In this document: piece by piece, positions 442 through 29,209 of the stretch
How the letters are laid out: the number at the start of each line of letters is the position of its first letter
How positions within the stretch are numbered: position 1 is the first letter of the stretch
Source of the DNA: Synechococcus sp.
GTDB lineage: Bacteria > Cyanobacteriota > Cyanobacteriia > Thermostichales > PCC-7336
Assembly: GCA_051439425.1 (NCBI GenBank)
Contig: JBFRWD010000108.1
Location: 1 to 29,209, forward strand
Reading direction: 5' to 3'
Length of the DNA: 29,209 nucleotides
The notes under the pieces: generated by a model
Told to the model about the DNA's origin: nothing
The model's database searches: none
The model's input: only the letters and a program-made list of their open reading frames with translations
Position numbers and translations under genes: made by a program

Positions 442-1224
442 ATGGCTAACGTAATTAATGGCACTCCTGGAAATGATAATCTTTTTGGTACTCCCGAAAA
501 GGATCTCATTAGAGGTTTGGATGGAGATGATCATATTTTTGCAGGTTTTGGTGATGATATTTCTGTGGGGGGAGCAGGGAATGATTGGATTCAAGATGGT
601 TTTGGTTTAGATTTAGGTTCAGGAGATGATCTGATTCAGGCAGGATCGGGTAATGATACCGTTTTTGCAGGTATAGGAAATGATCTAATAGTAGGTGGTG
701 ATGGTGATGATTTCTTGCGAGACAATCCTTTTGGGAATGGGGGTGACGATCAAATAAATGGAGGAAGAGGTAATGATTCCTTACTTGGAGATGATGGTGA
801 CGATAAATTGATTGGAGGAAGAGGTAATGATTTTTTGTCTGGTGGTAGGGGAAATGACCGCTTGATTGGAGGAAAAGGCAATGATGTATATGAATTTCGT
901 AATGAGATTACAGCTAAATTTGATGAACTAGGAGTAGATCGAATCATAGGTTATAAGCCTCAAGAAGATACTATCAGACTGAGTTCGACCGGAGGTTTCT
1001 CTCGGCTTACACCTGGAGCTTTGTTTGCTAGTTCTTTCAGTATTGTTGATAATGATTCTATGGCGGATGTCGAGGACGCTTTTATTGTTTATAGTCTAGG
1101 CAGTAAGAAGGTGTTTTACAATGAAAACGGAAACTTAGACGGTTTTGGTTCAGGTGGTGCATTTATAAACCTCATAGGTTCGGGAGATCCAGCTCTCTCT
1201 GCCAATGATTTTATTGTGACTTAG
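442..1224 (+). CDS. Hemolysin-type Ca-binding (RTX) repeat protein, 260 aa
   Basis: Many GGxGxDxLx nonapeptides; C-terminal ...LSANDFIVT tail typical of cyanobacterial RTX proteins; RBS AAGGAGG upstream. Confidence 0.92.
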   Translation: MANVINGTPGNDNLFGTPEKDLIRGLDGDDHIFAGFGDDISVGGAGNDWIQDGFGLDLGSGDDLIQAGSGNDTVFAGIGNDLIVGGDGDDFLRDNPFGNGGDDQINGGRGNDSLLGDDGDDKLIGGRGNDFLSGGRGNDRLIGGKGNDVYEFRNEITAKFDELGVDRIIGYKPQEDTIRLSSTGGFSRLTPGALFASSFSIVDNDSMADVEDAFIVYSLGSKKVFYNENGNLDGFGSGGAFINLIGSGDPALSANDFIVT

Positions 1225-1257
1225 AACCGATAACCAATCCTAGCTAATTTAATAAGT

Positions 1258-1282
1258 GATAGAGGAGCTGGTCTCCTCTATC
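1258..1282. terminator. Stem-loop downstream of RTX gene 1 (possible terminator)
   Basis: Perfect 10-bp stem GATAGAGGAG-ctggt-CTCCTCTATC, 33 bp after the stop; no strong U tract. Confidence 0.5.
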
Positions 1283-1416
1283 GGAGTGGTTCAATTGCGG
1301 GTTACATTCCAAGCTATTTCTCTAGATGAAATCAGCAATCATACCGCCGAGTTTGCGATCGCATCAGTGTGAGTCTAGATACTAAGCGATGGTATCTCGC
1401 AACCCGAGCGCACCCT

Positions 1417-1490
1417 ATGCTCCAAGCTCCCTCAGCCGCAGCCAATCTCCCTCCCGAAGCCAGATAGGAATTAGCCCTCAAGGGTCTGCT
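1417..1490 (+). pseudogene. N-terminal remnant of a transposase related to the 10929-12146 element
   Basis: Reads MLQAPSAAANLPPEAR*ELALKGL, similar to MYSAPSVAASLCPEIRQEIAIQAL starting at 12048 (-). Both are preceded by a GATAC...GTATC hairpin. Confidence 0.5.
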
Positions 1491-1737
1491 TCAACTTCAT
1501 AGGCAGTAGGGTAACACTCTGAGCAAGGCTCGAATCTGACAAAGGCCTAGTTGGTATGGATTGAGGATTTGATGAGTAACTAAGATTGTTACCCTGGTTT
1601 GAACCGTGCCATTTTCAGAACTGCCATTGTGCATCCGAAATTGCGCTTGCCAATAAAAAAGCGTCCTGTTTTGAAGCGCAGGAGGCAAGTTAAGGAGAAA
1701 CCTTATCTATTTAGGAAGGGAGAATAATACGAGGGAT

Positions 1738-1961
1738 TTAGTACACACCAGGCTCGCTGCTGGTCGAAGCATCATTTACCTTTTGCAAAAACTCGGGACG
1801 GAAGTTCTTGTTGTAAACTCCGTTGTCACCACTGGCAGAGTTGGCTTCGACTTTTTGTAGGAAGTCAGGGCGGAAGTTTTTGCTGTGTATGCCGTTCTCG
1901 GTGCTGGAGCCTCGCTCTTCTAGACGATCTAAGGTTTCCAGAATCGATGTGTTAGCGGGAG
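1738..1961 (-). pseudogene. 5'-truncated ORF with 23-aa tandem repeats (xNG[IV][HY]xKNFRP[DE]FLQKV)
   Basis: Two full repeats plus a partial third (EPGVY). The ORF-track start at 1974 lies inside the IS6 left IR, so the true 5' end is lost. Confidence 0.55.
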
Positions 1962-2404
1962 GGTTGTGTTGCAAACCTCAGCATGAATCAAGCGAGATGC
2001 TAGTCTGGGCCCTTGTTCCTCCTCTGAGCAGCTAGCTAATGCCTGCAGATGCTCCGTTCAAATTCCGTCACTTCCCTCCGTCCATCATCATCATGGCGGT
2101 GAGGCAGTACTTGAGGTATCGACTGAGTTATCGAGACGTTCAGTAACTTTTGGCTGAACGTGGAGTCAACGTCAATCATTCAACGATCTATCGCTGAGTG
2201 CAACGCCCCGCTCCGGAAATGGATGAAAGATGCCGGCCTCGCTGGCAGCCATCGAATGACTCCTGGAGGGTAGATAAACAGCTTGATGGTTTGGCTAGGG
2301 GAGACGTTGTTGCTCAGATAAACTTCATCAATCAGCTCTTTGGAATTGCTGTATAAAAACACAGACAATACTTAGACCATTTAAGTCTTTGCAACAACAG
2401 TACC
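1962..2404 (+). mobile_element. Internally deleted IS6-family element (443 bp)
   Basis: Left IR GGTTGTGTTGCAAA (1962); right IR TTTGCAAC(AAC)AGTACC ending 2404. Transposase N-terminus MPADAPFKFRHFPPSIIIMAVR has stops and joins at SWRVD directly to the C-terminus KQLDGLARG, so the DDE core is absent. Confidence 0.88.
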
Positions 2405-2482
2405 GTCCTCCTTGGTTTCGCCACCACTATACAAGGGCGATCTCGATCCAGATAGAGAAACGAGAACGCAGCATTTCTCTAT

Positions 2483-2874
2483 AGATGCAACCGACACGAA
2501 ATACCTAGGGGAGGGGACAGAAGTGAATATTGACTGATGAGAGCTGGTAAAGACAAAGAGAAAGGACACGATCCTTGGGAACATACATGTTGTTTATGTT
2601 TGTTATTCAAGAATGGTTGCAAGAGTTTTACAAAATAGGCGTTATCGAGAAAATTCATTTGCCTATTTTATATCCTATAAATGTAAGCCAGAATATTGAG
2701 GCTTGTTATTAGCAATTGATGAAATCTGGTCCAGTCCAGAAGGGCCAATTAATATAGGTTATGGTTTTGAGTCTATAGCTTTTGGCTTGATTGGGCTCAA
2801 TTTCATAAAGGCTTGGTCTTTCATCAGGCTAATATCCAGCTATCTATACTTGATTAGATATAAAGGAGGCAAAA
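2483..2874 (+). repeat. Duplicated upstream/promoter block, copy 2
   Basis: 2527-2874 matches 93-441; 2483-2678 matches 5221-5416. Confidence 0.9.
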
Positions 2875-3639
2875 ATGGCTAACGTAATTAATGGTACTCC
2901 TGGAAATGATGAGATTCTTGGTAGCCCTGGGAATGATCTCATCAAAGGATTTGCTGGAAATGATGTTATTTTTCCAGGTTTTGGTGATGATATTACTGAA
3001 GGTGGACCAGGGAATGACTTTATTCAAGATGGTTTTGGTAAAGACCTAATCAAGGCAGGATCGGGTAATGATATTGTTTTTGCAGGAGAAGACAACGATC
3101 TGGTAATTGGTGGGGATGGGGATGATTTCTTACGAGATACTCCTTTTGGAAATGGTGGTGACGATCGATTAATTGGAGGAAGGGGCAATGATTCGTTAAT
3201 CGGAGATGATGGTGATGATAAATTGATTGGAGGAAGAGGTAATGATTTTTTGTCTGGTGGCAGGGGAAATGACCGCTTGATTGGAGGAAGAGGCAATGAT
3301 ATATTTGATTTCAATAATGAATTTACCTCTAAGTTTGATGAACTAGGAGTAGATCGAATCATAGGTTATAAGCCTCAAGAAGATACTATCTTTCTTAATT
3401 CGACCGGAGGTTTCTCTCAGCTTACACCTGGAGCTTTACCTGCTAGTTCTTTCAGTATTGTTGATAATGATTCTATGGCGGATATCGAGGACGCTTTTAT
3501 TGTTTATAGTCAAGGCAGTAAGAAGGTTTTTTATAATGAAAACGGAAACTTAGGCGGTTTTGGTTCAGGTGGTGCATTTATAAACTTCATAGGCTCGGGA
3601 GACCCAGCTCTCTCTGCAAATGATTTTGTCGTCACGTAA
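2875..3639 (+). CDS. Hemolysin-type Ca-binding (RTX) repeat protein, 254 aa, paralog of 442-1224
   Basis: Same MANVINGTPGND start, GGxGxD repeats and near-identical C-terminal domain; RBS AAGGAGG. Confidence 0.92.
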   Translation: MANVINGTPGNDEILGSPGNDLIKGFAGNDVIFPGFGDDITEGGPGNDFIQDGFGKDLIKAGSGNDIVFAGEDNDLVIGGDGDDFLRDTPFGNGGDDRLIGGRGNDSLIGDDGDDKLIGGRGNDFLSGGRGNDRLIGGRGNDIFDFNNEFTSKFDELGVDRIIGYKPQEDTIFLNSTGGFSQLTPGALPASSFSIVDNDSMADIEDAFIVYSQGSKKVFYNENGNLGGFGSGGAFINFIGSGDPALSANDFVVT

Positions 3640-3784
3640 AGATCATCCTAATCCTAGGCTTGATTCAAAACCGCGTAGTGTTAAAAACATTAGGGATCTG
3701 GGATGAGCTAATGATGAAGGCGTTGTTTAGTTTCTCCATCTAACGCTCAATGACTAAAATATCGCAACTGGTTGCGGGTTTTGG
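3640..3784 (+). repeat. Conserved 3' flank shared with 10630-10765
   Basis: Near-identical sequence ATCATC.TAATCCTAGGCTTGATTCAAAACCGCGTAGTG...CAACTGGTTGCGGGTTTTGG after both stops. Confidence 0.9.
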
Positions 3785-3974
3785 TCCCGTATGAATTTGC
3801 CTGAAAGCCTCTACTGACCAGAAACCCCATCGATTCAGCCTAAAGCGGCTACAGTCCTTTAGGTTGACGGTTGATTTCGCCCCCTAGCGATTGCAACAAT
3901 CGAACAATACAGGCGGCATCTCAACCGGGGTGCCGTTTGCTTTAGGCCGATCCACTACTGCCAATCCATTCCCA

Positions 3975-4262
3975 TCAATGAAGAACTGCGGGGTGCTTTC
4001 TGCCCGCCGATCGACTACGGGTTAATTGCAAAGCCAGTTTTCCGTTGAAAATTCGCTCGCCAGGACGGGGCTTGCAGTCAGACAAGCCTGGATTGACTTG
4101 ACGACCCATGAATTGGACTTGGTCCGGTAATTCAACTGGAGCTTTGACGGGACTTTGAACGTTTGCTTTACGGCCGAGAAAGGTTGCTTCGCAATCGGTC
4201 TCAACCACGTCGTTTACTTTCATGCACTAGGGGCGACCCAGAAAATTAAGTTGAGAGTTCAT
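3975..4262 (-). pseudogene. Small DUF4278-like repeat protein with in-frame TAG at codon 12
   Basis: ATG at 4262 gives MNSQLNFLGRP*CMKVNDVVETDCEATFLGRK...VQFMGRQ. The three F[LM]GR motifs align with the neighbouring gene; TAG at 4229-4227. Confidence 0.6.
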
Positions 4263-4322
4263 TGTGCTGAGCCTCATCTCGATTACGTTTTTGTCGTTAG
4301 TCAGTCCGTCAAGCTTTGGAGG

Positions 4323-4550
4323 TTACGCAGGGACCAATCCATCGCTGTTGATGACAACAGTCTGGGGAGCGATTGCCTTTGTAGTGTGGTGTCCTAAGAA
4401 TTGAATGTCTGCAGGCAGAGAGACGTGAGGCTTCATGGGACTGCTGATATAAGCTTTGCGGCCGAAGAACGTTGCTTGCTGTTTGGTCTCGACGGTTTCG
4501 AAGGATTGGGATTGGAAGGGAAGACCGCGGTAGGTAGCTTGGAAGGTCAT
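4323..4550 (-). CDS. Small DUF4278-like protein, 75 aa
   Basis: ATYRGLPF...ATFFGRK...IQFLGH: three spaced YRG-like motifs resembling cyanobacterial DUF4278 proteins; GGAG RBS upstream; tandem paralog downstream. Confidence 0.65.
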   Translation of the reverse strand: MTFQATYRGLPFQSQSFETVETKQQATFFGRKAYISSPMKPHVSLPADIQFLGHHTTKAIAPQTVVINSDGLVPA

Positions 4551-5220
4551 GATGTCTTGCTCCAGTAGCGTGTGGGCAGTGCCCTTTGCTTCGATGCACT
4601 TAGTATCCCGAAGCCGACCCGTTGATGAAATCCAGAAACCTTCAGGTTTGTTCAGAGGAATGTTCAGGTCTTGAAAGTGATGGTGAAAATGTCAGAACTG
4701 AGGTCTCAAGTTGGGCGTGTCAATTAAAGGTTTTCTACTCAAGCTGTCAGACACCGAGCAAGAACGATTGGCTGATGGGTTAGGGGGAACAATGGCGCTG
4801 GATGAGATGGCTTGGATAGCTAGTGAAGGCGATCTAGCGGAGGCACTAGGCCACGAATCAGAGGTTTCCTGTCAGTTGTCGCGATTGGAAGGAATCATCT
4901 GCAAGTTGACTTACGGCAAGTAGATCGAGTGGGCTGGGCATCTCGTCACCACTGCCCAATTTTCACTCACCGAGGTAGAGCAATGAGATCCCTAGATACT
5001 CAGTTTCCAGTCAATCTAGCCGTTGCCAGTTTGGTTAAGGACAATCTCCCAAGCGATACAGAACAGTGAATGCAGTTGATTTTTTAAGGTCGAGAACAAC
5101 ACGGGCATTGAACTTTCAAACGCTGCAGAAACGCCTATTGGGCCTAACACTTTGCTTGTGCCGCAGATGACAACTTAGCCGATTGAGAGCTGTCACCAAC
5201 CGAACAGCGGCAGTTTCTGG

Positions 5221-5426
5221 AGATGCAACCGACACCAAATACCTAGGGGAGGGGACAGAAGTGAATATTGACTGATGAGAGCTGGTTAAGACAAAGAGAA
5301 AGAGCACGAATCTTGGAAACATACATGTTGTTTATGTTTGTTATTCAAGAATGGTTGCAAGAGTTTTACAAAACAGGCGTTATTGAGCATATTCATTTGC
5401 CTATTCTATATCCTGTAGATGCAACC
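5221..5426 (+). repeat. Upstream block, partial copy 3
   Basis: Matches 2483-2688; bounded by the direct repeat AGATGCAACC at 5221 and 5417. Confidence 0.88.
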
Positions 5427-5464
5427 AAATAAGTTCATATGAACCCAAAAATGCTTTCAATCTA

Positions 5465-5493
5465 TTTGTAGGCAAAGTTCATTTGTCTACAAA
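5465..5493. promoter_or_regulatory. Palindromic candidate operator TTTGTAGGCAAA-N5-TTTGTCTACAAA
   Basis: 12-bp arms with one mismatch, ~140 bp upstream of the 5631 start; its TTCATTTRYCTA portion recurs at 220, 2654 and 5392. Confidence 0.45.
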
Positions 5494-5630
5494 AGAAATA
5501 TTGGTTGTCTTACGGTAGGCATTTTCTCGAATAGGAAAATGCCCTAATTCTTTCATTCGAAGAATATCTTTTGACTCCTCCTAGTTCAATTGGTGCTGAA
5601 CTGTAAATATTCGCCCAAAGAGGTTTGATT

Positions 5631-7259
5631 ATGGCTTTTGACTTAACCACATTTCCATTCACAAACGGCAATGATATCGTTGCCCCGAGAGAAGAAATTT
5701 TCAATAGTGGACTAGTGAATGCTTTAGATGGCAATGACAAGATACTGGTGTCATTAGAGATAGATGCATCTGACAATCATGGTAGAACTTTTGGGATTTT
5801 TAATGTAGTTGATTTTCAAGGTGAACCCCCGATTGAACCCATAATTGATACCGGAATGGGGAATGATATTGTAGAGGGAGTGGTTGAAATTTTAGGCGGA
5901 AATAGTATAAGTGGTGATGGCTTTGGTCATGTTGCGGGGATTGCTCAAACAATTGAGCAGGCTGACGCCTATATTCTAACTGGGCCAGGCCGAGATCGAG
6001 TTAAAGGAGCTACCAGAATACAGCTTGGTAGGGATGTTGGCGAAGATGTCCGTCTCTTCGCAACTGGGATTTCTGGAGGATCGATTGACACAGGACTTGA
6101 TAGAGATGTTGTAGAAGGTAGTGGCATAATTCAAGTCAAAGATGGGGGAGACGATCAATTTGCTAGAGGAATTTCGTACGCAGGTATTAGTACAGGAGAA
6201 GGAAACGATAAAGTCACTGGCAATGCTGCTATTAACCGGGGTGATACTCCGATTGGAGAATCTAGATTTACTAGTACGGCCGAAGCATTTTTGTTCTTCG
6301 ATATTAATTCTGGAGCTGGTAACGACGTCATTGAAGGAACTGCTGCTGTAAATGTTGGAAGTGGAACCGATTTCTCTGTGTTCTCCAATGGATTCCTTTT
6401 CGGTGGAATAGACACAGGAGAGGGGAATGATACTGTCAGAAGTACTGTTGAAGCTATCGCAGGTAACGTAACCGATGTTGATATAATAGCTGACGGATTT
6501 GGCGGGTTTGGGGGAAACCTCGAAATAGAGACTGGTGCAGGTAACGACAAGGTAATAGCAGATGTCTTCACTCAAGTAGGTGACGGTACGGGTGAAACAC
6601 CAATCTCTGACTCTTCTGACGGGTTTGATCAAGTTCAACTGAATACTGGTACGGGAAATGACGTGGTCACCGGCACTTCAGTTGTAAGATTCGGAAACAG
6701 AAACGGTGCAGTGGCAAGGGCCAATGGAATTACCCTTAGCACTATTGAGACTGAAGATGGCAGAGATCGGGTAATTGGGACTGCTAGAGCTGATGTAGGT
6801 TTAGGGACTACGGCAGAGGCAAAGGGAATCAACAGCAGCACTATTGAGACTGGCGATGACAGAGATGTTGTCACGGGTTTGGCTACTGCCTATGGCCCTG
6901 GCGCGTTCGCGATTGGCATCTCGGACAGTGATATTTTGTTGGGCGGCGGTAACGATCAGGTTAGTGCTAGAGCTGTTGGGGATGGCACCCTAATTGGCAT
7001 TCATAACACTACAATTAATGCCGAAGCTGGCAACGATGTCATCAAAATTTTAAATGGAAACGGGAATATTGACGGTGGTGAAGGTAGGGATATTTTAATT
7101 ATTCAGGAGGGATTTAGCGATGACTACACCTTTACAACAACTGGTGCATCAGCAGGAACTATTGAAAACGTTGCTAATTCGACTAATCTTGTCGTCAGTA
7201 ATGTAGAGAAATTCATTTTCAATGATGGAAGCTTTGAATTTGGAGAGCTGTTTGTTTAA
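5631..7259 (+). CDS. Secreted acidic, Gly-rich Ca-binding/RTX-like repeat protein (~542 aa)
   Basis: Repeated IxTGxGxDxVxG units separated by long inserts; GGGND/GGEGRD motifs; C-terminal NVEKFIFNDG motif. ATG at 5631 with AGAGG RBS preferred over TTG at 5625. Confidence 0.85.
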   Translation: MAFDLTTFPFTNGNDIVAPREEIFNSGLVNALDGNDKILVSLEIDASDNHGRTFGIFNVVDFQGEPPIEPIIDTGMGNDIVEGVVEILGGNSISGDGFGHVAGIAQTIEQADAYILTGPGRDRVKGATRIQLGRDVGEDVRLFATGISGGSIDTGLDRDVVEGSGIIQVKDGGDDQFARGISYAGISTGEGNDKVTGNAAINRGDTPIGESRFTSTAEAFLFFDINSGAGNDVIEGTAAVNVGSGTDFSVFSNGFLFGGIDTGEGNDTVRSTVEAIAGNVTDVDIIADGFGGFGGNLEIETGAGNDKVIADVFTQVGDGTGETPISDSSDGFDQVQLNTGTGNDVVTGTSVVRFGNRNGAVARANGITLSTIETEDGRDRVIGTARADVGLGTTAEAKGINSSTIETGDDRDVVTGLATAYGPGAFAIGISDSDILLGGGNDQVSARAVGDGTLIGIHNTTINAEAGNDVIKILNGNGNIDGGEGRDILIIQEGFSDDYTFTTTGASAGTIENVANSTNLVVSNVEKFIFNDGSFEFGELFV

Positions 7260-7456
7260 CTAGGGAGACCTACTTCCTTTCCCAACTCTTCTTTTATCGC
7301 TTTAAGGTAAGGTCCATAGTCATCAGTAACTACATGTTCGGGAGGCTCTTCGGCCACTTCTAATGCCTGCTGGAAGAAGGCTTTGGCTGCTTCCATATCC
7401 TGAGTCTGGCTCAGCCTGGAGTCCACTAGATTTCCGTCCGAATCAATTGCTCTCGA
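7256..7456 (-). pseudogene. IS6-family transposase core fragment (second subfamily)
   Basis: RAIDSDGNLVDSRLSQTQDMEAAKAFFQQAL...PEHVVTD motif of IS6/IS240 DDE transposases. Confidence 0.8.
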
Positions 7457-7513
7457 TTCTGTCAGAACTGGGATCTCAGCAAGGAGCGAACAGTCTGCTA
7501 GGCTATGCAACTC

Positions 7514-7725
7514 GGTATCGTCAAATTAACTGAGACGTAACGAAAATCGTCACTGTTTTTCTTGGTCAAGGCCATAGGTGATGACTTGAGCTACTGCATA
7601 CAGACATCTCACATCAAGCCAGCTCTCTAAGCGTTGACTCATTGTTTCCCAATATTCTGTTGCCGAGAGTTTGTGCGGATAGAGATGGAAATGCCCTTTA
7701 ATGGGTTCGAAAGCAGATGAAAGAT
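7514..7725 (-). mobile_element. 3' remnant of an IS6-family element
   Basis: LSSAFEPIKGHFHLYPHKLSATEYWETMSQRLESW matches the tail at 24272-24445; IR-like GGTATCGTCAAATTAAC at 7514. Confidence 0.65.
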
Positions 7726-8016
7726 GAAACCCTTTGCGCCTGGCAGAGGGATTTGAAGAGACCCATCCGTTTTCCACTTAATCTTGTTGGTAAATGGGAA
7801 TTTTCTGCCTATTTGTTTAGGCCAACATGCTGTCTATGGTCTACTCCTCTCAGTATCTTTTTCATGCCCACTGCATAGCCTCTCATTAGTCTAAATATGA
7901 GTTTCAGAGATATGAGCTTTTCCCGATTCTAAAAGATGTGGTGAGTGAACTCAGTACGGTTTGTGGCCGTAAACCAGCTTCAAAATTCACAAAATTGCTA
8001 AACAGGATGAATACCC

Positions 8017-10629
8017 ATGGCTGATTTTTTTGTAACCAATATTAGTGACAGCGGTGATGGCTCTTTGCGTCAGGCCATCCTGGATGCCAACTTAGCGGCT
8101 GGTGCTGACAAAATTACGTTTGACCCATTAATCGGCGGGCAGACCATTGGCCTGTTGGGGACCGAATTGTTGATTACAGACGATTTGGAAATTGATGGCG
8201 AGACTAACAACGTTACCGTGGATGCCAACCAGCAGTCCCGCGTTTTCAACGTTGATGACGGCACTAATGATTCGATTGAGGTCGCCATTGAGGGTCTGAC
8301 GATTAACGGTGGTTCGGCTGGAGTAGGACAGGATTTTATAGGGGGTGGAATCATCAACCGGGAGACCCTAACTCTGACCGATTCCACCATCTTGGGCAAT
8401 ACCACATCAGGAGAGGGCGGCGGGATTTACAACTTTGGCACGTTAACCCTGTCCAATTCCACCGTCTCAGACAACGCCGCAGATGACGATGGTGGTGGGA
8501 TTGCCAACAACTTTGGCAGCACCTTGACCCTGATCGACTCCATCGTCTTAAACAACACCGGAGATGAGGCCGGTGGGATTCAGAATGGTGGTACTGCGAC
8601 CCTGACCAACTCCATCGTCTCAGACAACACCGGAGAGCAGGGCGGCGGGATTTTCAACTATGGCACCCTAACTCTGACCGATTCGACCGTCTCGGGCAAT
8701 ACCTCAACCGGAGAAGAGGGTGGCGGCGGGATTCTCAACAGTGGCACCCTGACCCTGATCGATTCCAACGTCTCAGGTAACACCGCAGCAGAAGAAGACG
8801 GCGGCGGGATTTTCAACGAGGAGGGCACCCTGACCCTGATCGATTCCACCGTCTCAGATAACACAGCATCATACGATGGCGGCGGGATTTTCAATGACCG
8901 CGGAACCGTAACCCTGACCGATTCCACCATCTCGAGCAATTTCGTAAGATCCGATGGCGGCGGGATTCGCAATCATGACGGCAACGTGACTCTGATCAAT
9001 TCCACCGTCTCAGACAATACTTCAGGATCTATCACTGCCTCCGGCGGCGGAATTAGCAACACAGGAACTGTGACCCTGACTGATTCCACCGTATCGGGTA
9101 ATGGAACGCAGAATGCTGGTGCCGGGATTTACAACGATGGCACCGTGACCCTGACCAACTCCACCGTCTCGGGCAATAGCGTAAGCTATTTCGGCGGTGG
9201 GATTTTTAACAGAGGCACTGCGACGCTGATCGACTCCACCGTCTCGGACAATAGCGCAGGAAGGTTCGGTGGCGGTGGGATTGACAATAGAGAGACCCTG
9301 ACCCTGTCCAGTTCCAGCGTCTCAGGCAACCGCTCAGGGGACTATGGCGGCGGGATCGTCAATGGAGGCACTGCTACCTTGACCAATTCCACCGTCTCAG
9401 GCAACACCGCAGACAGATACGGCGGCGGGATTGACAATGGAGGCACAGTAACCTTAAACAACTCCACCGTCTCAGACAACGGTGCAGGCATTTACGGCGG
9501 CGGGATCTTAAATAGTAGCTCTGTGACCCTAACCAACAGCCTAGTTTCTGGCAATACGGCTAACCTCTATGGCTTTCCGTACGACAACCCTGGCAACGAG
9601 GTGTATAGCCGCAATGATGGCATCTCCGCCAATGCCAACAACCTGTTTGGCGACAGCAGCCAGACCGAAGCGGAGGCCTTTTTTGGCTTTACCCCAGGGG
9701 CCAACGATATTGTTGCGACCTCAGATAACACCAGCCCCGCTACCCACATCCCCACTGCCCTGAACAATATCCTGGCGCCCCTAGCGGATAATGGCGGTGC
9801 TACGGAAACCCATGCCCTGGTCGCCGGTAGCCCTGCACTGGATGCCGGAGATAATCCCGATGATTTGGACTTCGATCAAAGAGGAGCAGGATTCCCTCGC
9901 ATCGTTAACGACATAGTCGACATCGGTTCCTTCGAGGCTTCTTTCGACCCCAATCTGATTGTTGGTACACCAGAACGCGATGTTATTTCTGGGACCGATG
10001 GAATGGATATTATTTTAGGTTTGCAGGGGAACGACAGAATTTTTGGAAGAGGAGATGATGACGAAGTAGTTGCAGGAGCTGGAAACGATTTAGTCACTGG
10101 TGGTGATGGAGACGATCTTTTAAGAGACGATCCCAACGGCAATGGGGGTAACGATCAACTTAATGGAAACGATGGAAACGATCGCTTATTTGGAGATGAT
10201 GGAAATGACAAATTGATTGGTGGAAGAGGCAACGATCTATTGTCTGGCGGAAGAGGCAATGACCGTTTGATTGGTGGCAGGGATAATGATATCTATATAT
10301 TTAATAATGAGATTAACTCTCGATTTGATGAACTGGGAGTAGATCGAATTATCGGTTATAAGCCACAAGAAGATATTATCGAACTGAGTTCGACCGGAGG
10401 TTTCTCGCAACTTACACCTGGAGCCTTACCTGCCAATTCTTTCAGTATTGTTGACAATGATTCTATGGCGGATATCGAGGACGCTTTTATCGTTTACAGT
10501 CTAGGAAGTAAGAAGGTTTTTTATAATGAAAATGGAAATCTAGACGGTTTTGGTGGAGGGGGTGCATTTATAGACTTTACAGGCTCGGGAGACCCAGCTC
10601 TCTCTGCAAATGATTTTATCGTCACATAG
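8017..10629 (+). CDS. Large secreted adhesin-like protein: beta-helix repeats, choice-of-anchor-Q-like domain and RTX C-terminal module, 870 aa
   Basis: N-terminus VTNISDSGDGSLRQAI; 16 GGGIxN...TLTxSTVSxN repeats; LADNGGATETHAL...SPALDAG...DQRG...DIGSFE motif; then GGxGxD repeats and the same tail as the 442 and 2875 genes. Confidence 0.9.
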   Translation: MADFFVTNISDSGDGSLRQAILDANLAAGADKITFDPLIGGQTIGLLGTELLITDDLEIDGETNNVTVDANQQSRVFNVDDGTNDSIEVAIEGLTINGGSAGVGQDFIGGGIINRETLTLTDSTILGNTTSGEGGGIYNFGTLTLSNSTVSDNAADDDGGGIANNFGSTLTLIDSIVLNNTGDEAGGIQNGGTATLTNSIVSDNTGEQGGGIFNYGTLTLTDSTVSGNTSTGEEGGGGILNSGTLTLIDSNVSGNTAAEEDGGGIFNEEGTLTLIDSTVSDNTASYDGGGIFNDRGTVTLTDSTISSNFVRSDGGGIRNHDGNVTLINSTVSDNTSGSITASGGGISNTGTVTLTDSTVSGNGTQNAGAGIYNDGTVTLTNSTVSGNSVSYFGGGIFNRGTATLIDSTVSDNSAGRFGGGGIDNRETLTLSSSSVSGNRSGDYGGGIVNGGTATLTNSTVSGNTADRYGGGIDNGGTVTLNNSTVSDNGAGIYGGGILNSSSVTLTNSLVSGNTANLYGFPYDNPGNEVYSRNDGISANANNLFGDSSQTEAEAFFGFTPGANDIVATSDNTSPATHIPTALNNILAPLADNGGATETHALVAGSPALDAGDNPDDLDFDQRGAGFPRIVNDIVDIGSFEASFDPNLIVGTPERDVISGTDGMDIILGLQGNDRIFGRGDDDEVVAGAGNDLVTGGDGDDLLRDDPNGNGGNDQLNGNDGNDRLFGDDGNDKLIGGRGNDLLSGGRGNDRLIGGRDNDIYIFNNEINSRFDELGVDRIIGYKPQEDIIELSSTGGFSQLTPGALPANSFSIVDNDSMADIEDAFIVYSLGSKKVFYNENGNLDGFGGGGAFIDFTGSGDPALSANDFIVT

Positions 10630-21043: not shown

Positions 21044-21052
21044 CGCCTGTTC

Positions 21053-21578
21053 GGTACTGTTGCAAAGACTTGAAAGCAGACAAATGGTCTAAGTGTTACC
21101 TGTATTTTTATGCAGCAATCCCAAAGAGCTGATTGATGAAGTTTGTCTGAACAACAACGTCTCCCCTAGCAAAACCATCAAGCTGTTCCTTGCGAATCAT
21201 GTTGATAGTTTCGTATCCCCTGAGAGTTCGTTGAGCACTCCAGAAGTTCTTGAAATACTGGCTAGCTTTGACTCTCCAGCGAACAAATCGGCGATCTTGC
21301 TCCACTATGCTTTCATCCATTTCCGGAGCGGAGCGTTGTACCCAGCGATAGATCGTTGAGTGATTGACGTTGGCTTCCACGTTCAGCCAACAGTTCCTGA
21401 ACGTCTCGATAACTCAGTTGATACCTCAAGTACCACCTCACCGCCATGATGATGATCGACGGAGGGAAGTGACGACACCTGAACGGAGTATCTGCTGGCA
21501 TCAATTAGCTAATTCGGCAGGGCAAAAGAGCCTAGACCAGCATCTCGCTTGAGTCACGCCGAATTTTGCAACACAACC
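21053..21578 (-). mobile_element. Internally deleted IS6-family element (526 bp)
   Basis: IRs GGTACTGTTGCAAA (21053) and TTTGCAACACAACC (21565-21578); frameshifted transposase with APEMDE joined to SIVEQDRRF (core deleted). Confidence 0.9.
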
Positions 21579-21718
21579 CTTTCCTCCTGCCACTGAAAGA
21601 ACTTAAGTAGCTATGAATAAGATCTTCAGTTCCTGAGCTCGTTGACAATTTTTTTTCATTGTCAGGTAAGCATACGGATTTTGTCATCCGCGTAGGTGAT
21701 TTCTAACTAAGTAGAATT

Positions 21719-22159: not shown

Positions 22160-22503
22160 CTTTCGGTATTAACTAATACATTGATGTGAATATTTCTAAA
22201 AGAGTCTGTTGGATTAGCCTACCTGTAATACATTCAAAAACGATCATATATCCATGGCCATATGAATTAGGGCGCAAGGCAAAGATCGAGCTAGAAAGCA
22301 TCGCGCTGTAATGTTGCAAAGATTTTTCAAAGAGCTATCCGGAGTGTCACAGCTGAAAAAAAGGGTCTACAAGTGGCGTCCCAGAAAATCTTTACAACAG
22401 TACCTCATACAGAGCAATGGGAAGTTTCGGTCATTATTAGTTCAGAGATTTTCCCTCTATCCTTTACTAATCAAGGATCGTGCAGATTTGTGCTGAGTCT
22501 CAG

Positions 22504-23268
22504 TCAATTTGGCAATGAGTTTATCATTCCTGCTTCATAGGGGGCGAAGCCCGCATCAAAGTGAGTGCTTTCGCTATACTTGGCTCCGCCTAACTTTGCT
22601 CCATCAAGGTTGGCTCCTCTCAGATCGGCTCCGACCAAATTAGCTTCTGCTAGATTGACATTTTTTAAGTTTGCTTCCTTTAGATTGGCAAACTTTAATT
22701 CAGCACTCCACAAATCTGCTTTAACGAGCAGACTTTTTCTTAAATCAGCACTTTGCAAGTCCACAGCTCTAAGATTAGCCTTCCAGAGAGATGCCTCTCG
22801 TAAGTCGGCACCATGCAGTTTGGCATGCCATAGCAAAGCCCGACTCAAATTGGCTCCCCTCATGTGCGCTCCACCCAAGTCAGCTGTTCTGAAGTCAACG
22901 TCTTCCAAGTTCGCTCGACTCAAATCCACTTGCCTGAGGTCGGCCTCTCTGACATCTGCTCCATGCAAATTAGCCGACCGTAGATCAGCGGCTCTCATGT
23001 CTGCCCCCCTAAATATTGCGCCTTCGAGCAGAGCTTCTCGCAGATCGGCATTCCTTAAGTCTGCTAGTTCAAGATTGGCCTCTTTGAGAACAACGTGGAA
23101 TAAATCGGTTCCTCTCAAATTAGATTTGTAGAACCCAGACTCGCTAAAGTTAGCTTTATTCAATATTGCCGAATGCAAATCAGCCTCTACCAGATTTGCT
23201 CCATGAAAATCTCGCTTACCAAAAGCATAAAGCTCCAGTACCTTTGATGCAGATGTGAGCTCGTACAC
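22504..23268 (-). CDS. Pentapeptide repeat protein, 254 aa
   Basis: N-terminus ELYAFGKRDF then continuous A[DN]Lxx repeats; typical tail GAKYSESTHFDAGFAP. Confidence 0.93.
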   Translation of the reverse strand: MYELTSASKVLELYAFGKRDFHGANLVEADLHSAILNKANFSESGFYKSNLRGTDLFHVVLKEANLELADLRNADLREALLEGAIFRGADMRAADLRSANLHGADVREADLRQVDLSRANLEDVDFRTADLGGAHMRGANLSRALLWHAKLHGADLREASLWKANLRAVDLQSADLRKSLLVKADLWSAELKFANLKEANLKNVNLAEANLVGADLRGANLDGAKLGGAKYSESTHFDAGFAPYEAGMINSLPN

Positions 23269-23599
23269 AAATCAACTCAGAATCACTACCTCAGCGACTC
23301 ACTCACTCCCTTGTCCGTAATTTTACGCAGACTGGCCGATTCATAATGCCACTGCACAACATATCTCAACACGGAAGTTGCAAACGAGACAAAGCTGTCA
23401 TTCCCTTACTGCCAGATACTCCACTAGGGATCCGTCACTTTCAAATACAGAAATCTTATGGAAAGCTGTTTGATACTTAAATGTATTATTTCGTGGATAT
23501 TGATGTAGTGAAGAGTGGACTCAACTCATAACATCTAGGTTAGTAGATGGTACGCGATGGAGAAACGGAACATGTATGGAGAGAGCAGTACACTAGTAA

Positions 23600-24251
23600 T
23601 TGGTTGGCTACGTCAGGGTCAGTTTTGAGGGTCAAGCCGACAACACCAGTCTCGACCAACAATAATCTCGAATCAAAAACTACTGTCATGCCTTCGGTCA
23701 CGAGTTGGTAAAGGTCTTTGTCGAGGTTGGCAGCGGTAAGGATACCGACAATCGTCCTCAGTTCCAGGCGGCCTTGGAGATGGTCCGAGAAGAGGCGGAT
23801 GGGATTATTGCCCTCAAGCTTGACCGGATTGCTCGCAACGCTCGATACGTGTTGGCCCTCGTTGAAGACTGTTTGCATCCTCCAAATAAGGCCTTGGTGT
23901 TGTTAGATCTGCAGGTCGATACATCTGCAGGAAAGATGATTCTGACTGTGATAGCTGCAGTCGCTGAGTTGGAGCGCAATACGATTGCTAAGCGAACTAA
24001 AGCGGGTAGAGCAGCAAAAGCAGCGAAGGGTGGTTTTGCCTATGGGAGCCCACACTTCGGAACCAAAGCAGTCGAAGGGAAGCTAGTTCCCATCGAGAAG
24101 GAGCAAGCTGATTCGCCGCCACCGCAAATCAGGGAAGTCTTATGCCAAGATCGCTGACTGGTTCAACGGTGAAGGATTCACTACTCAACGAGATAAGTCC
24201 TGAAATGCTACGTAGGTTCAGCGGGTGTATCGACGGCTGATGGATAGATAA
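23600..24251 (+). pseudogene. Serine recombinase (resolvase/invertase family) pseudogene
   Basis: In frame upstream of the ORF call: LVGYVRVSFEGQ (catalytic Ser), then TAA at 23663-23665. SGKDTDNRPQF, KLDRIAR and AELERNTI follow; frameshift near 24110 before SYAKIADWFNGEG, then further stops. Confidence 0.88.
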
Positions 24252-25363: not shown

Positions 25364-26223
25364 GGTATTGTTTCAAAGACTTGAAAGCAGACAAAAGGTC
25401 TAAGTGTTGCCTGTATTCTTTATACAGCAATCCCAAAGAGCTGAGTGATGAAGTTTATCTGAGCAACAACGTCTCCCCTAGCAAAACTATCTGCCCTAGC
25501 AAAAACATCAAGCTGTTCCTTGCGAGTCATGTTGATAGTTTCGTATCCCCTGAGAGTTCGTTGAGCACTCCAGAAGTTCTTGAAATTCTGGCTGGATTTG
25601 ACTCTCCATCGGACAAATCGGTGATTTTGCTCCACTATATTTTGAAGGTACTTTACAAGGCGATGCTTGCAGCTCTCTGGCAGTTCACCCGACTGTTTCA
25701 GTTCTGCGATCACTTTGACGTAGCTACCATTCTTATCAGTGTTGATGACCTTCGGCATTTGAATTTGCTCTCTCTGCAAGACCTTACGCAGAAAACTTTT
25801 GGCAGCCTTGCCATCACGTTTAGCCGTTAGCAAAAAGTCTAGAGTGTTTCCGGCTGAGTCAACTGCGCGGTACAAGTATTTCCAAACGCCTCCGACTCGA
25901 ATATACGTTTCGTCAACTCTCCAGGAATCGTTGGTAGGCTGCCATCGAGACCGAAATCTTTAATCTATTTCCGGAGCCAAGCGCTCCCCCACCGATAGAT
26001 TTTTGAATGGTCGACATTGACTCCTCTTTCTGTCAGCATCTCCTGAACATCTCGATAGCTCAGTCGATATCTCAAATACCATCTCACTGCCATGATGATG
26101 ATCGATGGAGGGAAATGACGGCATTTGAACGGGGTATCTGCGGGCATCAGTTCGCTAGTCAGAGAAAGCAAAGGGGCTCACACTACCATGCCGCCTGAAT
26201 TACGCCGCGTTTGCAACAGAATC
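25364..26223 (-). mobile_element. Near full-length IS6-family element, transposase inactivated
   Basis: Degenerate IRs GGTATTGTTTCAAA (25364) and TTTGCAACAGAATC (26210-26223); MPADTPFKCRHFP...WRVDETY...YLYRAVD...INTDKN...NIVEQNHR; 1-nt frameshift near 25988, a TAA stop, and an 18-nt internal duplication near 25477. Confidence 0.9.
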
Positions 26224-26282
26224 GCATAGACTCAGGAGGAGTTTTTTTTGCTTTCAGGGGCTTGCTTCTGGGGATATGGCTC

Positions 26283-26821
26283 TAGAAACCAGCATTTGGT
26301 TTCTGGTATCCATATGTTGGTTTAAGGAACATGGATCATGGAAACTGGTTACTGGAATCTGGTTTCTGGAAAACGGCATCTAAACACCATTGACTGACTT
26401 CTGGCATCCTTAAATTAGCTTTAGGAACATGGATTCTGGAAACTGGTTACTGGAATATGGATGCCAGAAACCATTATCTGGAAACCAATACCTGGTTTCT
26501 GGCATCCATAAGTTGGTATCAAGAACATGGATTCTGGAAACTGGATTCAGCAATATGGAATTTGGAAACCAGTATTTGGAAACCAATACCTGGTTTCCAA
26601 ATACTGGTTTCCATAAGTTGGCATCAAGAACATGGATTCTGGAAACTGGTTGTTGGAATATGGATTTTAAAAACCATTATCTGGAAACCAATACCTGGTT
26701 TCTGGCATCCATAAGTTGGTATCAGGAACCTGGATTCTGGAAACCGGTTTTAGCAATATGGAATTTGGAAACCAGTATCCGGAAACCAATATCTGGTTTC
26801 TGGTATCCAGATACTGGTTTC
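26283..26821. repeat. Array of 77 in-phase degenerate heptamers (YRGWWWC) with 98/105-bp higher-order repeat; candidate partition centromere
   Basis: Parses without indels as TAGAAAC CAGCATT TGGTTTC TGGTATC ... CAGATAC TGGTTTC; landmark ARGAACM-TGGAT recurs at 26325, 26423, 26521, 26626 and 26724. Confidence 0.93.
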
Positions 26822-27051
26822 ATTGCTCTTTAATTTGTCTTCTGTAGTTGAGTGGATGGTGTCTGGATTGAGTGAAGATAACGATAGAGCTTGCGGTAAT
26901 CAAAATAAAGGTATGGATCGCCTCTGTCTGATTACCTTTGCCCACTCCGAAGATTTTAGAGATTGCTTGCTTGTCTGGTGAAGACTAGAGTCTTGATTTT
27001 CAGCTTGCACCTGTGGAAGCGGCTAAGTGCTCTTACTATAAGTTTCATGAG

Positions 27052-27417
27052 TCATAGGTCTTCTAGGCTGATGCCGGGGGGGAGTCCAAACTCGTTTGCC
27101 AAGATGCTCTTGAGCATCGGGCTAAGTTTCACTCGTTTCTTGCGGCACCCTTTCTTCCAATGTTCGCGAACAACATACGGAACTTTAAAACCAGCCACGT
27201 TAACTAGCTCCATATCCGAATCACTGTAAAGTGGCGACATCGAAACCGAGCCATTATCTTCTACGCCACTATCAAGAGACTCTTGCTCCGGCAAATCGTT
27301 TCTCGAAGTCTCAACGCCATCACTAGCACTGTGATTTCTGGTTTCCAGATTATGGTTATTGGTTTCTGTATTTACCTCCTCTATTCCTTTACTTACTTGA
27401 GTTCTAAAGCGAGCCAT
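27052..27417 (-). CDS. Small ParG/omega-like partition partner (disordered N-terminus, RHH-like C-terminus), 121 aa
   Basis: Starts 21 bp after the parA stop, with GAGGT RBS; C-terminus LVNVAGFKVPYVVREHWKK...LSPMLKSILANEFGLP fits a strand-helix-helix pattern. Confidence 0.7.
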   Translation of the reverse strand: MARFRTQVSKGIEEVNTETNNHNLETRNHSASDGVETSRNDLPEQESLDSGVEDNGSVSMSPLYSDSDMELVNVAGFKVPYVVREHWKKGCRKKRVKLSPMLKSILANEFGLPPGISLEDL

Positions 27418-27438
27418 CAGACATCTACCTCGTGGTTG

Positions 27439-28062
27439 TTAGTTAATCAGTGAATGAATTTCTTTGAATGCTTTTTGATAATCTAGCCAGGGCATTCGGT
27501 ATTTACCTGGCTGTTGGGCTAAAGTCGCTCCAGCTAAGCTAGCGTGACGAACTCCCTCGCCCCTCCGTATAGAGGCATTCAGTAACTGGTATCCCTCTTC
27601 CTGTAAATCTTCGGCTAACTCCGCGCCTGATTTACCAGAACTCAACACATCAGTGAGCAAAATACGATATGTGCCCTGGTTTCCAGCGATTGCCTTTGCT
27701 GTTTCAATCGCAGCACTAGCGCTATCTACGTCTACCTTTGTAGGAATGACAACCAGATCGCTATCTTCAGCCAAGTCTTTAAGGTCGTCATCGGAAATAC
27801 TAGCCTGCGTATCTAGAATGACGTACTCTGCACCATCAACAGCCTTCGCCATCTTCGCAAAAGAGGCTACTACAAAAGGAGGATCGAACTTTTGATTATC
27901 ACTTGCTCTGGCTTGCCACTTTAAAGCAGTTCGATTCGCATCGTCGTCAATCAACGCAACTCGATAACCTTCCTGAGTGAGCCAGTACGCAAAATGAATG
28001 GCACTCGTGCTTTTTGCAACTCCGCCTTTTTTGGAAACAAAACTGACGTATTTCATTGACAT
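27439..28062 (-). CDS. parA: ParA-family Walker ATPase, short type Ib form (no N-terminal HTH)
   Basis: Deviant Walker A SKKGGVAKST, VALIDDDAN, Walker B YVILDT, SDLVVIPT. ATG 28062 with AGGTGG RBS preferred over 28101. Confidence 0.92.
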   Translation of the reverse strand: MSMKYVSFVSKKGGVAKSTSAIHFAYWLTQEGYRVALIDDDANRTALKWQARASDNQKFDPPFVVASFAKMAKAVDGAEYVILDTQASISDDDLKDLAEDSDLVVIPTKVDVDSASAAIETAKAIAGNQGTYRILLTDVLSSGKSGAELAEDLQEEGYQLLNASIRRGEGVRHASLAGATLAQQPGKYRMPWLDYQKAFKEIHSLIN

Positions 28063-28090
28063 CACATAAAGCCACCTACGGATGTCGTCG

Positions 28091-28141
28091 ATAATATCCA
28101 AAAAAATGGTTTTTGGAAAACAAAAAATGGTTTTTGGAAAA
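28091..28141 (-). promoter_or_regulatory. Putative parA promoter overlapped by 20-bp direct repeats
   Basis: AAAAAATGGTTTTTGGAAAA at 28101 and 28122 (21-bp period); on the minus strand TTTCCA (28119-28114)-17 bp-TATTAT (28096-28091). Confidence 0.55.
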
Positions 28142-28280
28142 TGGTCCTTAATGTCCTGTTTAGCCTTGATATCTCCTTGTTGGGGTAATTGAAGCTCTGG
28201 TAGCGGAAATCTGGACAGACATTCCCGAACTAGTGCTCTGTCAGGGAAGAATTGAGGGATAAAGCCTCTTAAGCTTAATG

Positions 28281-28643: not shown

Positions 28644-28970
28644 ATGTCTGACCAAGCATTAGAACGCATAGAAAAAGCCTTGCAGAGCATTGGGGCTGAT
28701 GTCAGCACCTTGAAAGCTGATGTCAGTTCCCTGAAGGATGATGTCAATACGCTCAGAAACGACCTCAAAACCGTCGATCGAAACGTGGATGTGTTGGAAG
28801 CCGATGTTAGACGGTGGGACGAACGGTTTTTCCAATTGACCCGAGATAACGCAGCTACCGCCCGCAATATTATTGTGGCGGCGGCAAGCGTTGTGATTTT
28901 TGGGTCAGCCCTCAAAGCTTTACCCGATATTTTAGAGGCGATTGCTTTATTGAGGTCTGGAGCTCAATAG
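28644..28970 (+). CDS. Coiled-coil protein with C-terminal hydrophobic helix, 108 aa
   Basis: AAGGAG RBS; heptads DVSTLKA DVSSLKD DVNTLRN DLKTVDR NVDVLEA; hydrophobic IIVAAASVVIFGSAL. Confidence 0.85.
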   Translation: MSDQALERIEKALQSIGADVSTLKADVSSLKDDVNTLRNDLKTVDRNVDVLEADVRRWDERFFQLTRDNAATARNIIVAAASVVIFGSALKALPDILEAIALLRSGAQ

Positions 28971-29068: not shown

Positions 29069-29209
29069 TTAATTCGCTGTGACCAGTTGCATAGATTTAG
29101 CTTGTCGTTTAGCCACCGCATAAACATCAGCCAACCGAATCGCCTGAGCCTCATCGCAGCCGAGTGCTGTCATGAGCTGATTGGCCAATGGAGTGGAAGG
29201 AATCAATTT
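29069..29209 (-). CDS. Probable 3' end of a gene running off the window
   Basis: Open frame KLIPSTPLANQLMTALGCDEAQAIRLADVYAVAKRQAKSMQLVTAN* pointing towards the 28993 hairpin. Confidence 0.4.
   Translation of the reverse strand, partial: KLIPSTPLANQLMTALGCDEAQAIRLADVYAVAKRQAKSMQLVTAN

Follow-up and report, generated by a model that had tools for sequence, protein, structure and literature searches.

Type Ib partition systems pair a short Walker-type ParA with a small partner protein that binds iterated short repeats. The omega protein of pSM19035 binds with one dimer per heptad in either orientation. Its sites comprise 7-10 heptads, at least four contiguous ones are needed, and stimulation of the ATPase does not differ among 5, 6 and 7 repeats (PMC9499535). 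ParG of TP228 uses one dimer per tetramer box, the boxes are separated by AT-rich spacers, and parH activity rises with box number (PMC3130281). The partner of pCXC100 is an RHH protein without sequence homology to known motifs that binds cooperatively to a set of nine 9-bp direct repeats that precede the operon (PMC3074162). RHH-type systems cannot spread, and the account of omega names as an open question how they load enough protein for a diffusion ratchet (PMC9499535). In the published descriptions compared here, type Ib centromeres comprise 7-10, 9 or 12+8 units; the locus described below has 77, with a higher-order structure.

The window, i.e. the entire stretch of DNA analysed (29,209 nucleotides, Synechococcus sp.), is the whole of contig C108 in a genome of 182 contigs and 4.8 Mb. 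At 26283-26821 (539 bp, no strand assigned) it carries 77 in-phase heptads, which we propose to be a centromere lattice of the parS/parH type. Column majorities over the 77 heptads (T/C, G/A, G, A/T, A/T, T/A, C) yield the consensus YRGWWWC. Each heptad is composed of a 4-bp box of the CCAG/CTGG type and three A/T bases (the 3-bp spacers are 89% A/T), and box orientation is mixed. Read as C-YR-G plus WWW, 63 of the 76 whole units contain a box from an eight-member set, both orientations included, and the other six phases of the array yield 0 matches. On the gene strand, CCAG prevails (26), followed by CCAA (9), CCAT (9), ATGG (7), CTGG (5), TTGG (5), CCGG (2) and others (13). The array autocorrelation is at least 0.42 at all multiples of 7, but 0.14-0.35 at other lags up to 30. 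It has maxima at 203 bp (0.68), 98 bp (0.68) and 14 bp (0.55), and TRF found the periods 98 and 203. Heptad lags 14 and 29 lie above all of 5000 heptad shuffles (p 2e-4).

With counting started at the A(A/G)GAAC heptads (26325, 26423, 26521, 26626 and 26724), the higher-order units comprise 14, 14, 15 and 14 heptads. Five such units, again without strand, were delimited: U1 (26297-26394), whose identity to the others is 0.69-0.73 in the identity matrix, U2 (26395-26492), U3 (26493-26597, 105 bp), U4 (26598-26695) and U5 (26696-26793), which is followed by a partial unit up to 26821. Since U3/U5 (0.89) and U2/U4 (0.82) are the closest pairs, a 203-bp period results; the 98 bases from 26493 and the 98 from 26696 differ at 8 positions. 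Hence, the single phase, the consensus, the grouping into units and the 203-bp super-period, all described in an earlier note on this DNA that had asked for autocorrelation and TRF, are confirmed. The extra heptad falls on the U3/U4 junction, at which the array contains a perfect palindrome with 23-bp arms and a 5-bp loop (26563-26613, no strand). In 60 heptad shuffles, arms reached 14 bp at most. The palindrome is probably a footprint of template-switch copying.

The array is separated by 230 bp from the stop codon of the partner gene, as the note had stated for the parA-partner operon. The parA gene (27439-28056, minus strand) encodes a 205-aa Walker-type ATPase with KKGGVAKST at residues 9-17. 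Walker A is at the extreme N-terminus, the signature lysine is present and an N-terminal HTH is absent, as in type Ib. ParA matches Pfam CbiA, VirC1 and AAA_31, and its match to NF041546 ParA_partition (E 7e-24) is under the family cut-off. The most likely start codon is the ATG at 28056 rather than that at 28101, in agreement with the 205 aa of annotated homologues. The partner gene (27052-27417, minus strand) is located directly downstream with a gap of 21 bp. It encodes a 121-aa protein predicted to have a flexible N-terminus and an RHH-like C-terminus, the proposed centromere-binding protein and autorepressor. Upstream of parA, six boxes with 7-bp spacing (28103-28144, minus strand) form a proposed operator, so that iterated short repeats near the operon extend, as in type Ib, to the promoter region. 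These boxes overlap a sigma70-like match at 28119-28091. However, two promoter-like sites were found and 5.0 are expected by chance, so the promoter call is weak by itself.

The partner has a basic/aromatic N-terminal motif with a conserved M-A-R-F start. Residues 11-54 and 56-59 (pLDDT <50) are predicted to be a disordered linker, and the C-terminal 61 residues are modelled as strands and two helices at pLDDT 94, with a strand-helix-helix domain at about residues 70-110. The monomer model displays a beta-hairpin instead of the single strand. Three lines, none of them significant alone, weakly suggest that the C-terminus is RHH-like. First, the top ESM Atlas clusters are hypothetical or RHH (0.89-0.91). 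Second, PDB profile matches of the partner family include AvtR, MazE7, ORF56 and VapB30 (E 0.13-0.5), which we take to be RHH proteins. Third, many RHH chains were matched in a structure comparison (VIA) at Z 2.1-3.4. Those at Z 2.3-3.4 include omega (2.3-2.4), pCXC100 ParB (3no7, 2.6), PutA RHH, Arc, NikR, DinJ and RelB. Foldseek with the domain model gave no match at E 0.001 or better; all E values were >3, with Arc MYL second at 3.9. Fold searches with the low-confidence full-length model were uninformative, and the predicted complex of two partner copies scored 0.30 against a mark of 0.42, which we count neither for nor against a dimer. Pfam and NCBIfam contain no family matched by the 121-aa protein and no RHH family for 22 alignment members and 5 eight-period partners (see below). 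Besides itself, 59 close homologues are available; the named ones are from Phormidesmis and Acaryochloris, and one is on pMB06. None was found in 6 genomes of the same family or in viral contigs.

Related par loci were collected from metagenomes, GTDB contigs and two 401-genome samples, of which 10 and 30 genomes matched, the own genome counted. Fifty loci have a full ParA (170 aligned residues), near-duplicate loci included. Self matches or duplicates (L018, L043-L049, L069-L072, L074), weak matches (L015-L017, L027) and loci with <170 aligned ParA residues (L002, L024, L035, L057, L065, L066, L068, L073, L075-L078) were left out. Box chains were scanned within 2.4 kb per locus, some loci being short, and periods 6-10 were scored with one matrix designed after the loci had been seen. 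In 49 of the 50 loci, chains of the same box are present, with period 7 in 21 and period 8 in 28 loci; none has both. Seven-period loci carry runs upstream of parA (21/21), in the partner linker (21/21) and downstream (17/21), eight-period loci upstream of parA (24/28) and in the linker (26/28). In most relatives a run has 4-19 boxes; the longest run does not exceed 13 boxes in 19 of 21 seven-period loci and 19 boxes in eight-period loci. The par family is found on 16 plasmid records, among them pAQ7 of PCC 7002 with an eight-period member. On the complete plasmids pMB06 (140.5 kb), pNPM7, UHCC 0302 unnamed8 and NIES-4106 plasmid4, we detected 8, 3, 4 and 3 chain runs, exclusively at or within ~3 kb of the par operon. 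The tie between repeats, par operon and a partner of predicted RHH type is thereby supported.

A quick ParA tree unites the seven-period loci in a single clade (SH-aLRT 88), and eight-period rows are both its sister and located on both deeper sides. This position makes one switch from 8 to 7 bp the simplest reading, according to which the period would have changed in a single event. The clades are separated by Y81, E85, K88, C91, R92, R95, S99 and K103 in helix A or the helix A-B turn; these residues are only candidates for setters of the spacing. The distant pair L076 and L078 has another box of the GACG type with period 8, which in L076 occurs upstream of parA and in the linker. This box change is as expected if protein and site changed together.

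Some boxes are written into coding DNA. Five boxes with 7-bp spacing (27335-27369, minus strand) lie in the DNA encoding the partner linker, where three heptads encode KPETRNQ. They are eroded compared to homologues, whose linker run has up to 13 boxes encoding KPETRNQ-type repeats. Of 55 full-length homologues, 34 contain ETRNQ or ETKNQ. Linker length was measured in 53 cases, of which 29 fit a single ladder with steps of 7 residues (34 to 69); eight-period partners have 8-residue-type repeats. Slippage of in-frame site triplets would be expected to alter the length of the tail. In four relatives (L003, L005, L008, L014), the box run just downstream of the partner gene codes for the N-terminus of the following gene product, in L005 that of a YhcG/DUF1016 nuclease. 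L005 has an extra box cluster ~150 bp upstream of a higBA-like pair, recalling the omega regulon. The pAQ7-type loci L019 and L020 contain a strong run of four 8-bp boxes inside parA, ~80 bp before its stop.

Compared to delta/omega/parS of pSM19035 as published, the locus has in common a 7-bp period, unspaced direct and inverted repeats, promoter-overlapping sites (PMC9499535, PMC5016525), a short ParA and a partner with a flexible N-terminus; an RHH fold in omega corresponds to an RHH-like prediction here. The comparison with omega drawn in the earlier note thus fits (PMC9499535). By contrast, the repeat is CYRG plus WWW (consensus YRGWWWC) instead of the WATCACW of the omega/parS family proper, 77 units replace 7-10, the array has a 98/203-bp hierarchy, and sites occur in the partner coding DNA, too. 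Profile searches did not find sequence homology of the partner to omega. ParF/ParG/parH-OF of TP228 resembles the locus in its degenerate tetramer boxes of mixed orientation, its AT-rich spacers and the use of such sites as operator and centromere, and the 4-bp spacers of OF correspond to the 8-bp period of the 28 relatives (PMC3130281). As described there, however, the box is ACTC, at an 8-bp period in the ParG/parH family proper, and 12+8 boxes are located upstream of the genes (PMC3130281). The array in the window, with CCAG-type boxes at period 7, has a 3-bp spacer, is located downstream and is six times longer; homology to ParG was not detected. With pCXC100 the locus shares the type Ib organisation, unspaced degenerate repeats and a partner outside known motifs, whereas the nine repeats reported there are direct, 9 bp long and upstream (PMC3074162). 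The McdAB system for carboxysome positioning likewise has a short ParA of cyanobacteria and, behind it, a small gene (PMC7182216). In contrast to McdB as characterised in that report, the partner lacks a Trp in its last four residues (it ends LEDL) and a coiled coil (PMC7182216), and has an RHH-like predicted domain and cognate DNA repeats. A 121-aa protein without Pfam match is not the large ParB with ParB_N and HTH of type Ia. Judged by sequence, the system appears to have the examined features of type Ib, the RHH fold weakly, and to fall outside the omega, ParG, type Ia, McdAB and STRR families. In searches of a library of open-licence papers, no account was found of this par family, the array, the switch from 8 to 7 bp or sites coding for the linker of their own binder.

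Long 14-box higher-order arrays are confined, among the related loci scanned, to the window and L028, which are sisters on the quick ParA tree (SH-aLRT 96). L028 has 35 in-phase heptads ~170 bp behind the stop codon with an own 14-heptad period (0.69, p 2e-4). Its best in-phase identity with the window array is 0.53, as in shuffles (p 0.41), so that common origin and convergence are not separable. Adjacent-box pairs 0-120 bp behind the stop number 0 in the window and in L028, versus 2-8 in 19 of 19 others. At 120-900 bp they number 43 and 18, respectively, versus 0-4 in 16 of 16. Furthermore, the linker runs of both loci are the weakest or near-weakest (3 and 4 pairs versus 4-8). We propose that in this lineage a downstream 14-box block was tandemly duplicated, first by 98 bp, then by 203 bp. 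Meanwhile, the gene-embedded and post-stop runs would have decayed, leaving docking capacity in one block with up to ~63 good boxes. This suggested redistribution of boxes is based on two loci and one event. Within the window array, the duplications appear to be layered, with U1 the oldest and U2/U4 and U3/U5 recent.

Between units, boxes outlast substitution more than in random-mutation simulations (P 0.03, 0.03, 0.0004), although the test is lenient, as the box set was defined from the same data. Raw substitutions are not rarer in boxes (30/168 positions) than in spacers (22/126). Strict phase conservation had been interpreted as a reflection of cooperative coating. In decayed repeats of the same genome, 0.031 gap openings per mismatch were counted, which predicts ~1.5 indels over the 47 between-unit substitutions. 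Therefore, the absence of phase-breaking indels (0 seen, P ~0.3) is unremarkable, phase selection is not significant, and the array alone is insufficient for that interpretation. The unusual array length that the earlier note had remarked on reflects an amplification specific to this lineage.

The reading that we favour, and which on sequence and analogy we regard as likely, is that the array acts in cis as the centromere of a type Ib cassette (ParA and RHH) of cyanobacterial plasmid origin, that it was amplified and that its length is relevant. Binding of the boxes by the 121-aa partner, which the parallels to related systems suggest, can be expected with considerable confidence. One partner dimer would contact each 4-bp box through a beta-ribbon. 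As the box is nearly two-fold symmetric, either orientation would keep the 7-bp spacing. Cooperativity between neighbouring dimers would yield a filament coating the DNA, as with omega and ParG. The N-terminal tails would touch nucleoid-bound ParA-ATP and trigger its release, whereupon the DNA cargo moves, and the boxes before parA (28103-28144) would repress the operon. We infer this omega-, ParG- and pCXC100 ParB-like mode of action by analogy.

The most serious alternative, which we judge clearly less probable but worth weighing, accepts the boxes as true partner sites and regards the long array as surplus: a neutral amplification or a relic on a piece of plasmid that is now part of the chromosome, at most a protein sink or a transcription roadblock. 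Since omega stimulates its ATPase equally with 5, 6 and 7 repeats and relatives apparently manage with short runs (at most 13 boxes in 19 of 21 seven-period loci), the extra length may indeed be dispensable, and the non-significant indel test agrees with this. On the other hand, the sister L028 keeps a long 14-box array despite a change at 45% of fourfold sites, ParA is 96% identical between the two loci, both lack the post-stop run, and box retention exceeds simulation. The surroundings also favour a surplus array. In its middle part, the contig contains glgX, sensor kinase and MFS genes of which the genome has no other full copy, and two of them (kinase and glgX) have 66-72% matches on the closed chromosome of the same-genus genome G004. 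The large plasmid assumed in the earlier note is therefore not supported; an island in the chromosome may be the place of the cassette. The part at 21-29 kb is rich in IS sequences and has 1 HIP1 octamer in 8.1 kb, compared to 11 in the 9.6 kb of the middle part; for HIP1, C108 takes the third-lowest place among 100 contigs. Such HIP1 poverty fits foreign DNA. The cassette may represent a plasmid fragment that has integrated; alternatively, IS copies may have served to join the contig. An IS6-family element (DDE_Tnp_IS240) with a split transposase (25393-26223) ends 60 bp from the array, a further point in favour of a surplus array, and may have truncated it. IS6 remnants are also located near 1960-2400 and 21050-21590. 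Additional partition genes (ParM, a second ParA) are frequent on complete plasmids with the par family, so the cassette is not necessarily essential.

A field of replication-origin iterons or a copy-number site bound by Rep or a CopG-like protein is improbable. A/T-rich repeat fields suit replication origins, and L076 weakly matches the ORF56 copy-control family (E 6e-7, under the cut-off). However, a CyRepA-like gene was not found on the contig, the boxes of complete plasmids are at par genes and far from CyRepA1 genes, and the partner directly follows parA in nearly all loci. Rep candidates seen in large ORFs in the vicinity of some relatives were rejected, as they have no Pfam/NCBIfam match.

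STRR heptamers are common in cyanobacteria and have a 7-bp period like the par array, and eukaryotic satellites form higher-order repeats, tandem units of units with turnover, over megabases. A neutral STRR-like satellite beside par genes by chance is nevertheless very improbable, and largely refuted by the genome, locus and plasmid scans. In contrast to both repeat classes, the par array is locus-specific, of mixed orientation, tied to par genes and 0.5 kb long. It is the sole long array of YRGWWWC in the 4.8-Mb genome, in which the runs of the motif that rank next lie within the partner gene and before parA. Of only four period-7 box chains scoring at least 6.5, three are at the par locus; weak period-8 chains number three. 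The scattering named in the earlier note as an argument against a centromere was thus not observed. Instead, the boxes accompany 49 of 50 par loci, with a period that depends on the clade. The genome does contain heptamer arrays at C111:32757 (CCAGTGA) and C178:56706, but these are uniform and one-directional, unlike the par lattice. The former has a CCAG box and the 7-bp period in common with it, so cross-binding is conceivable. A weak heptad signal at C76:21236 was dropped as ordinary coding region. Logan pieces from X1 match 26091-26649 and 26729-28132 with 0 differences; between a piece from X4 and 26676-26858 there is 1 difference. The assembly may derive from sample X1. As none of the Logan pieces listed spans the whole array, the exact unit count rests on the assembly. 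Among the matches listed, no RNA sample holds the array sequence.

That the array acts through secondary structure, as a cruciform, hairpin RNA or terminator, appears equally far-fetched. Its DNA fold is strong compared to dinucleotide shuffles (z = -11.7) and the 23-bp palindrome is perfect, but mixed-orientation boxes fold by construction, and the excess is small against heptad shuffles, of which 5 of 60 are as stable (2 of 150 for L028). L028 lacks a long palindrome, and Rfam gave only sub-threshold matches to miRNA-type hairpins. A coding function, for which only the listed 134-aa ORF at 26429-26833 speaks, is hardly credible in view of 2-7 stops in each of the six frames across the full array and likewise in L028, periods of 98 and 203 that are not multiples of 3, and the lack of a Pfam match for the ORF.

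The family provides a natural series from 4-13-box runs to a 77-unit block that makes the loading question directly testable. The 7- and 8-bp clades, which share one box, bridge omega-like and parH-like geometries, and swaps of arrays and proteins between them can map the residues that set dimer-dimer spacing. PCC 7002, the pAQ7 host, is genetically tractable, and vectors for cyanobacteria can profit from partition cassettes. More speculatively, and with clear reservations, one may see here a bacterial centromere with a satellite-like mode of evolution. Dispersed RHH sites would have been replaced by one array that retains its 14-box (98-bp) period despite sequence turnover, length would substitute for ParB spreading, and the lattice would have switched from 8 to 7 bp with the box unchanged. 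With sites of the binder in its own gene, slippage would change site number and tail length together.

Some relatives have peculiarities of their own. L021 (L043:6555-7100) is an eight-period member among IS genes on a chromosome-sized contig (G156 contig C1, 4.29 Mb); its upstream array of 8-bp boxes has a 61-bp higher-order period, which is not a multiple of 8, so that the phase is broken. On pAQ4 of PCC 7002 (NC_010478.1, L079:594-779), the partner gene looks frameshifted in the RHH part (tblastn yields two pieces and the product is annotated as short), whereas the copy on pAQ7 is intact. Runs of 8-bp boxes lie on either side of the pAQ4 gene and recur near 2088. The closest eight-period relative (L042:1476-3026) adjoins a telomere resolvase gene, which suggests a linear replicon. 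L031 and L034 are from bins labelled Bacteroidota, yet nest among cyanobacterial loci on the ParA tree and are probably misbinned plasmid contigs. Plasmid pMB06 carries a second parA with another small RHH-like partner (L081:17427-18326), by eye flanked by GCGAAAT/A-type repeats, and thus has two such cassettes plus ParM.

Elsewhere in the window, 28644-28970 encodes a 108-aa coiled-coil protein with a hydrophobic C-terminus that has a partial homologue on the relaxase-bearing contig C146. The last 127 bases (29083-29209) recur without a difference at the end of C176, a contig with a gene for a ParA-like ATPase and, downstream, a larger ORF. Four glycine/aspartate-rich repeat proteins of 260, 254, 544 and 870 aa, RTX-like by eye, are encoded at 442-10629. 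Three of them have a near-identical C-terminal domain in common, and DNA searches in three same-genus genomes gave no match to these genes. A pentapeptide-repeat gene and a serine resolvase form a block at 22395-24251 that has an 86% identical copy at C136:6180-8047.
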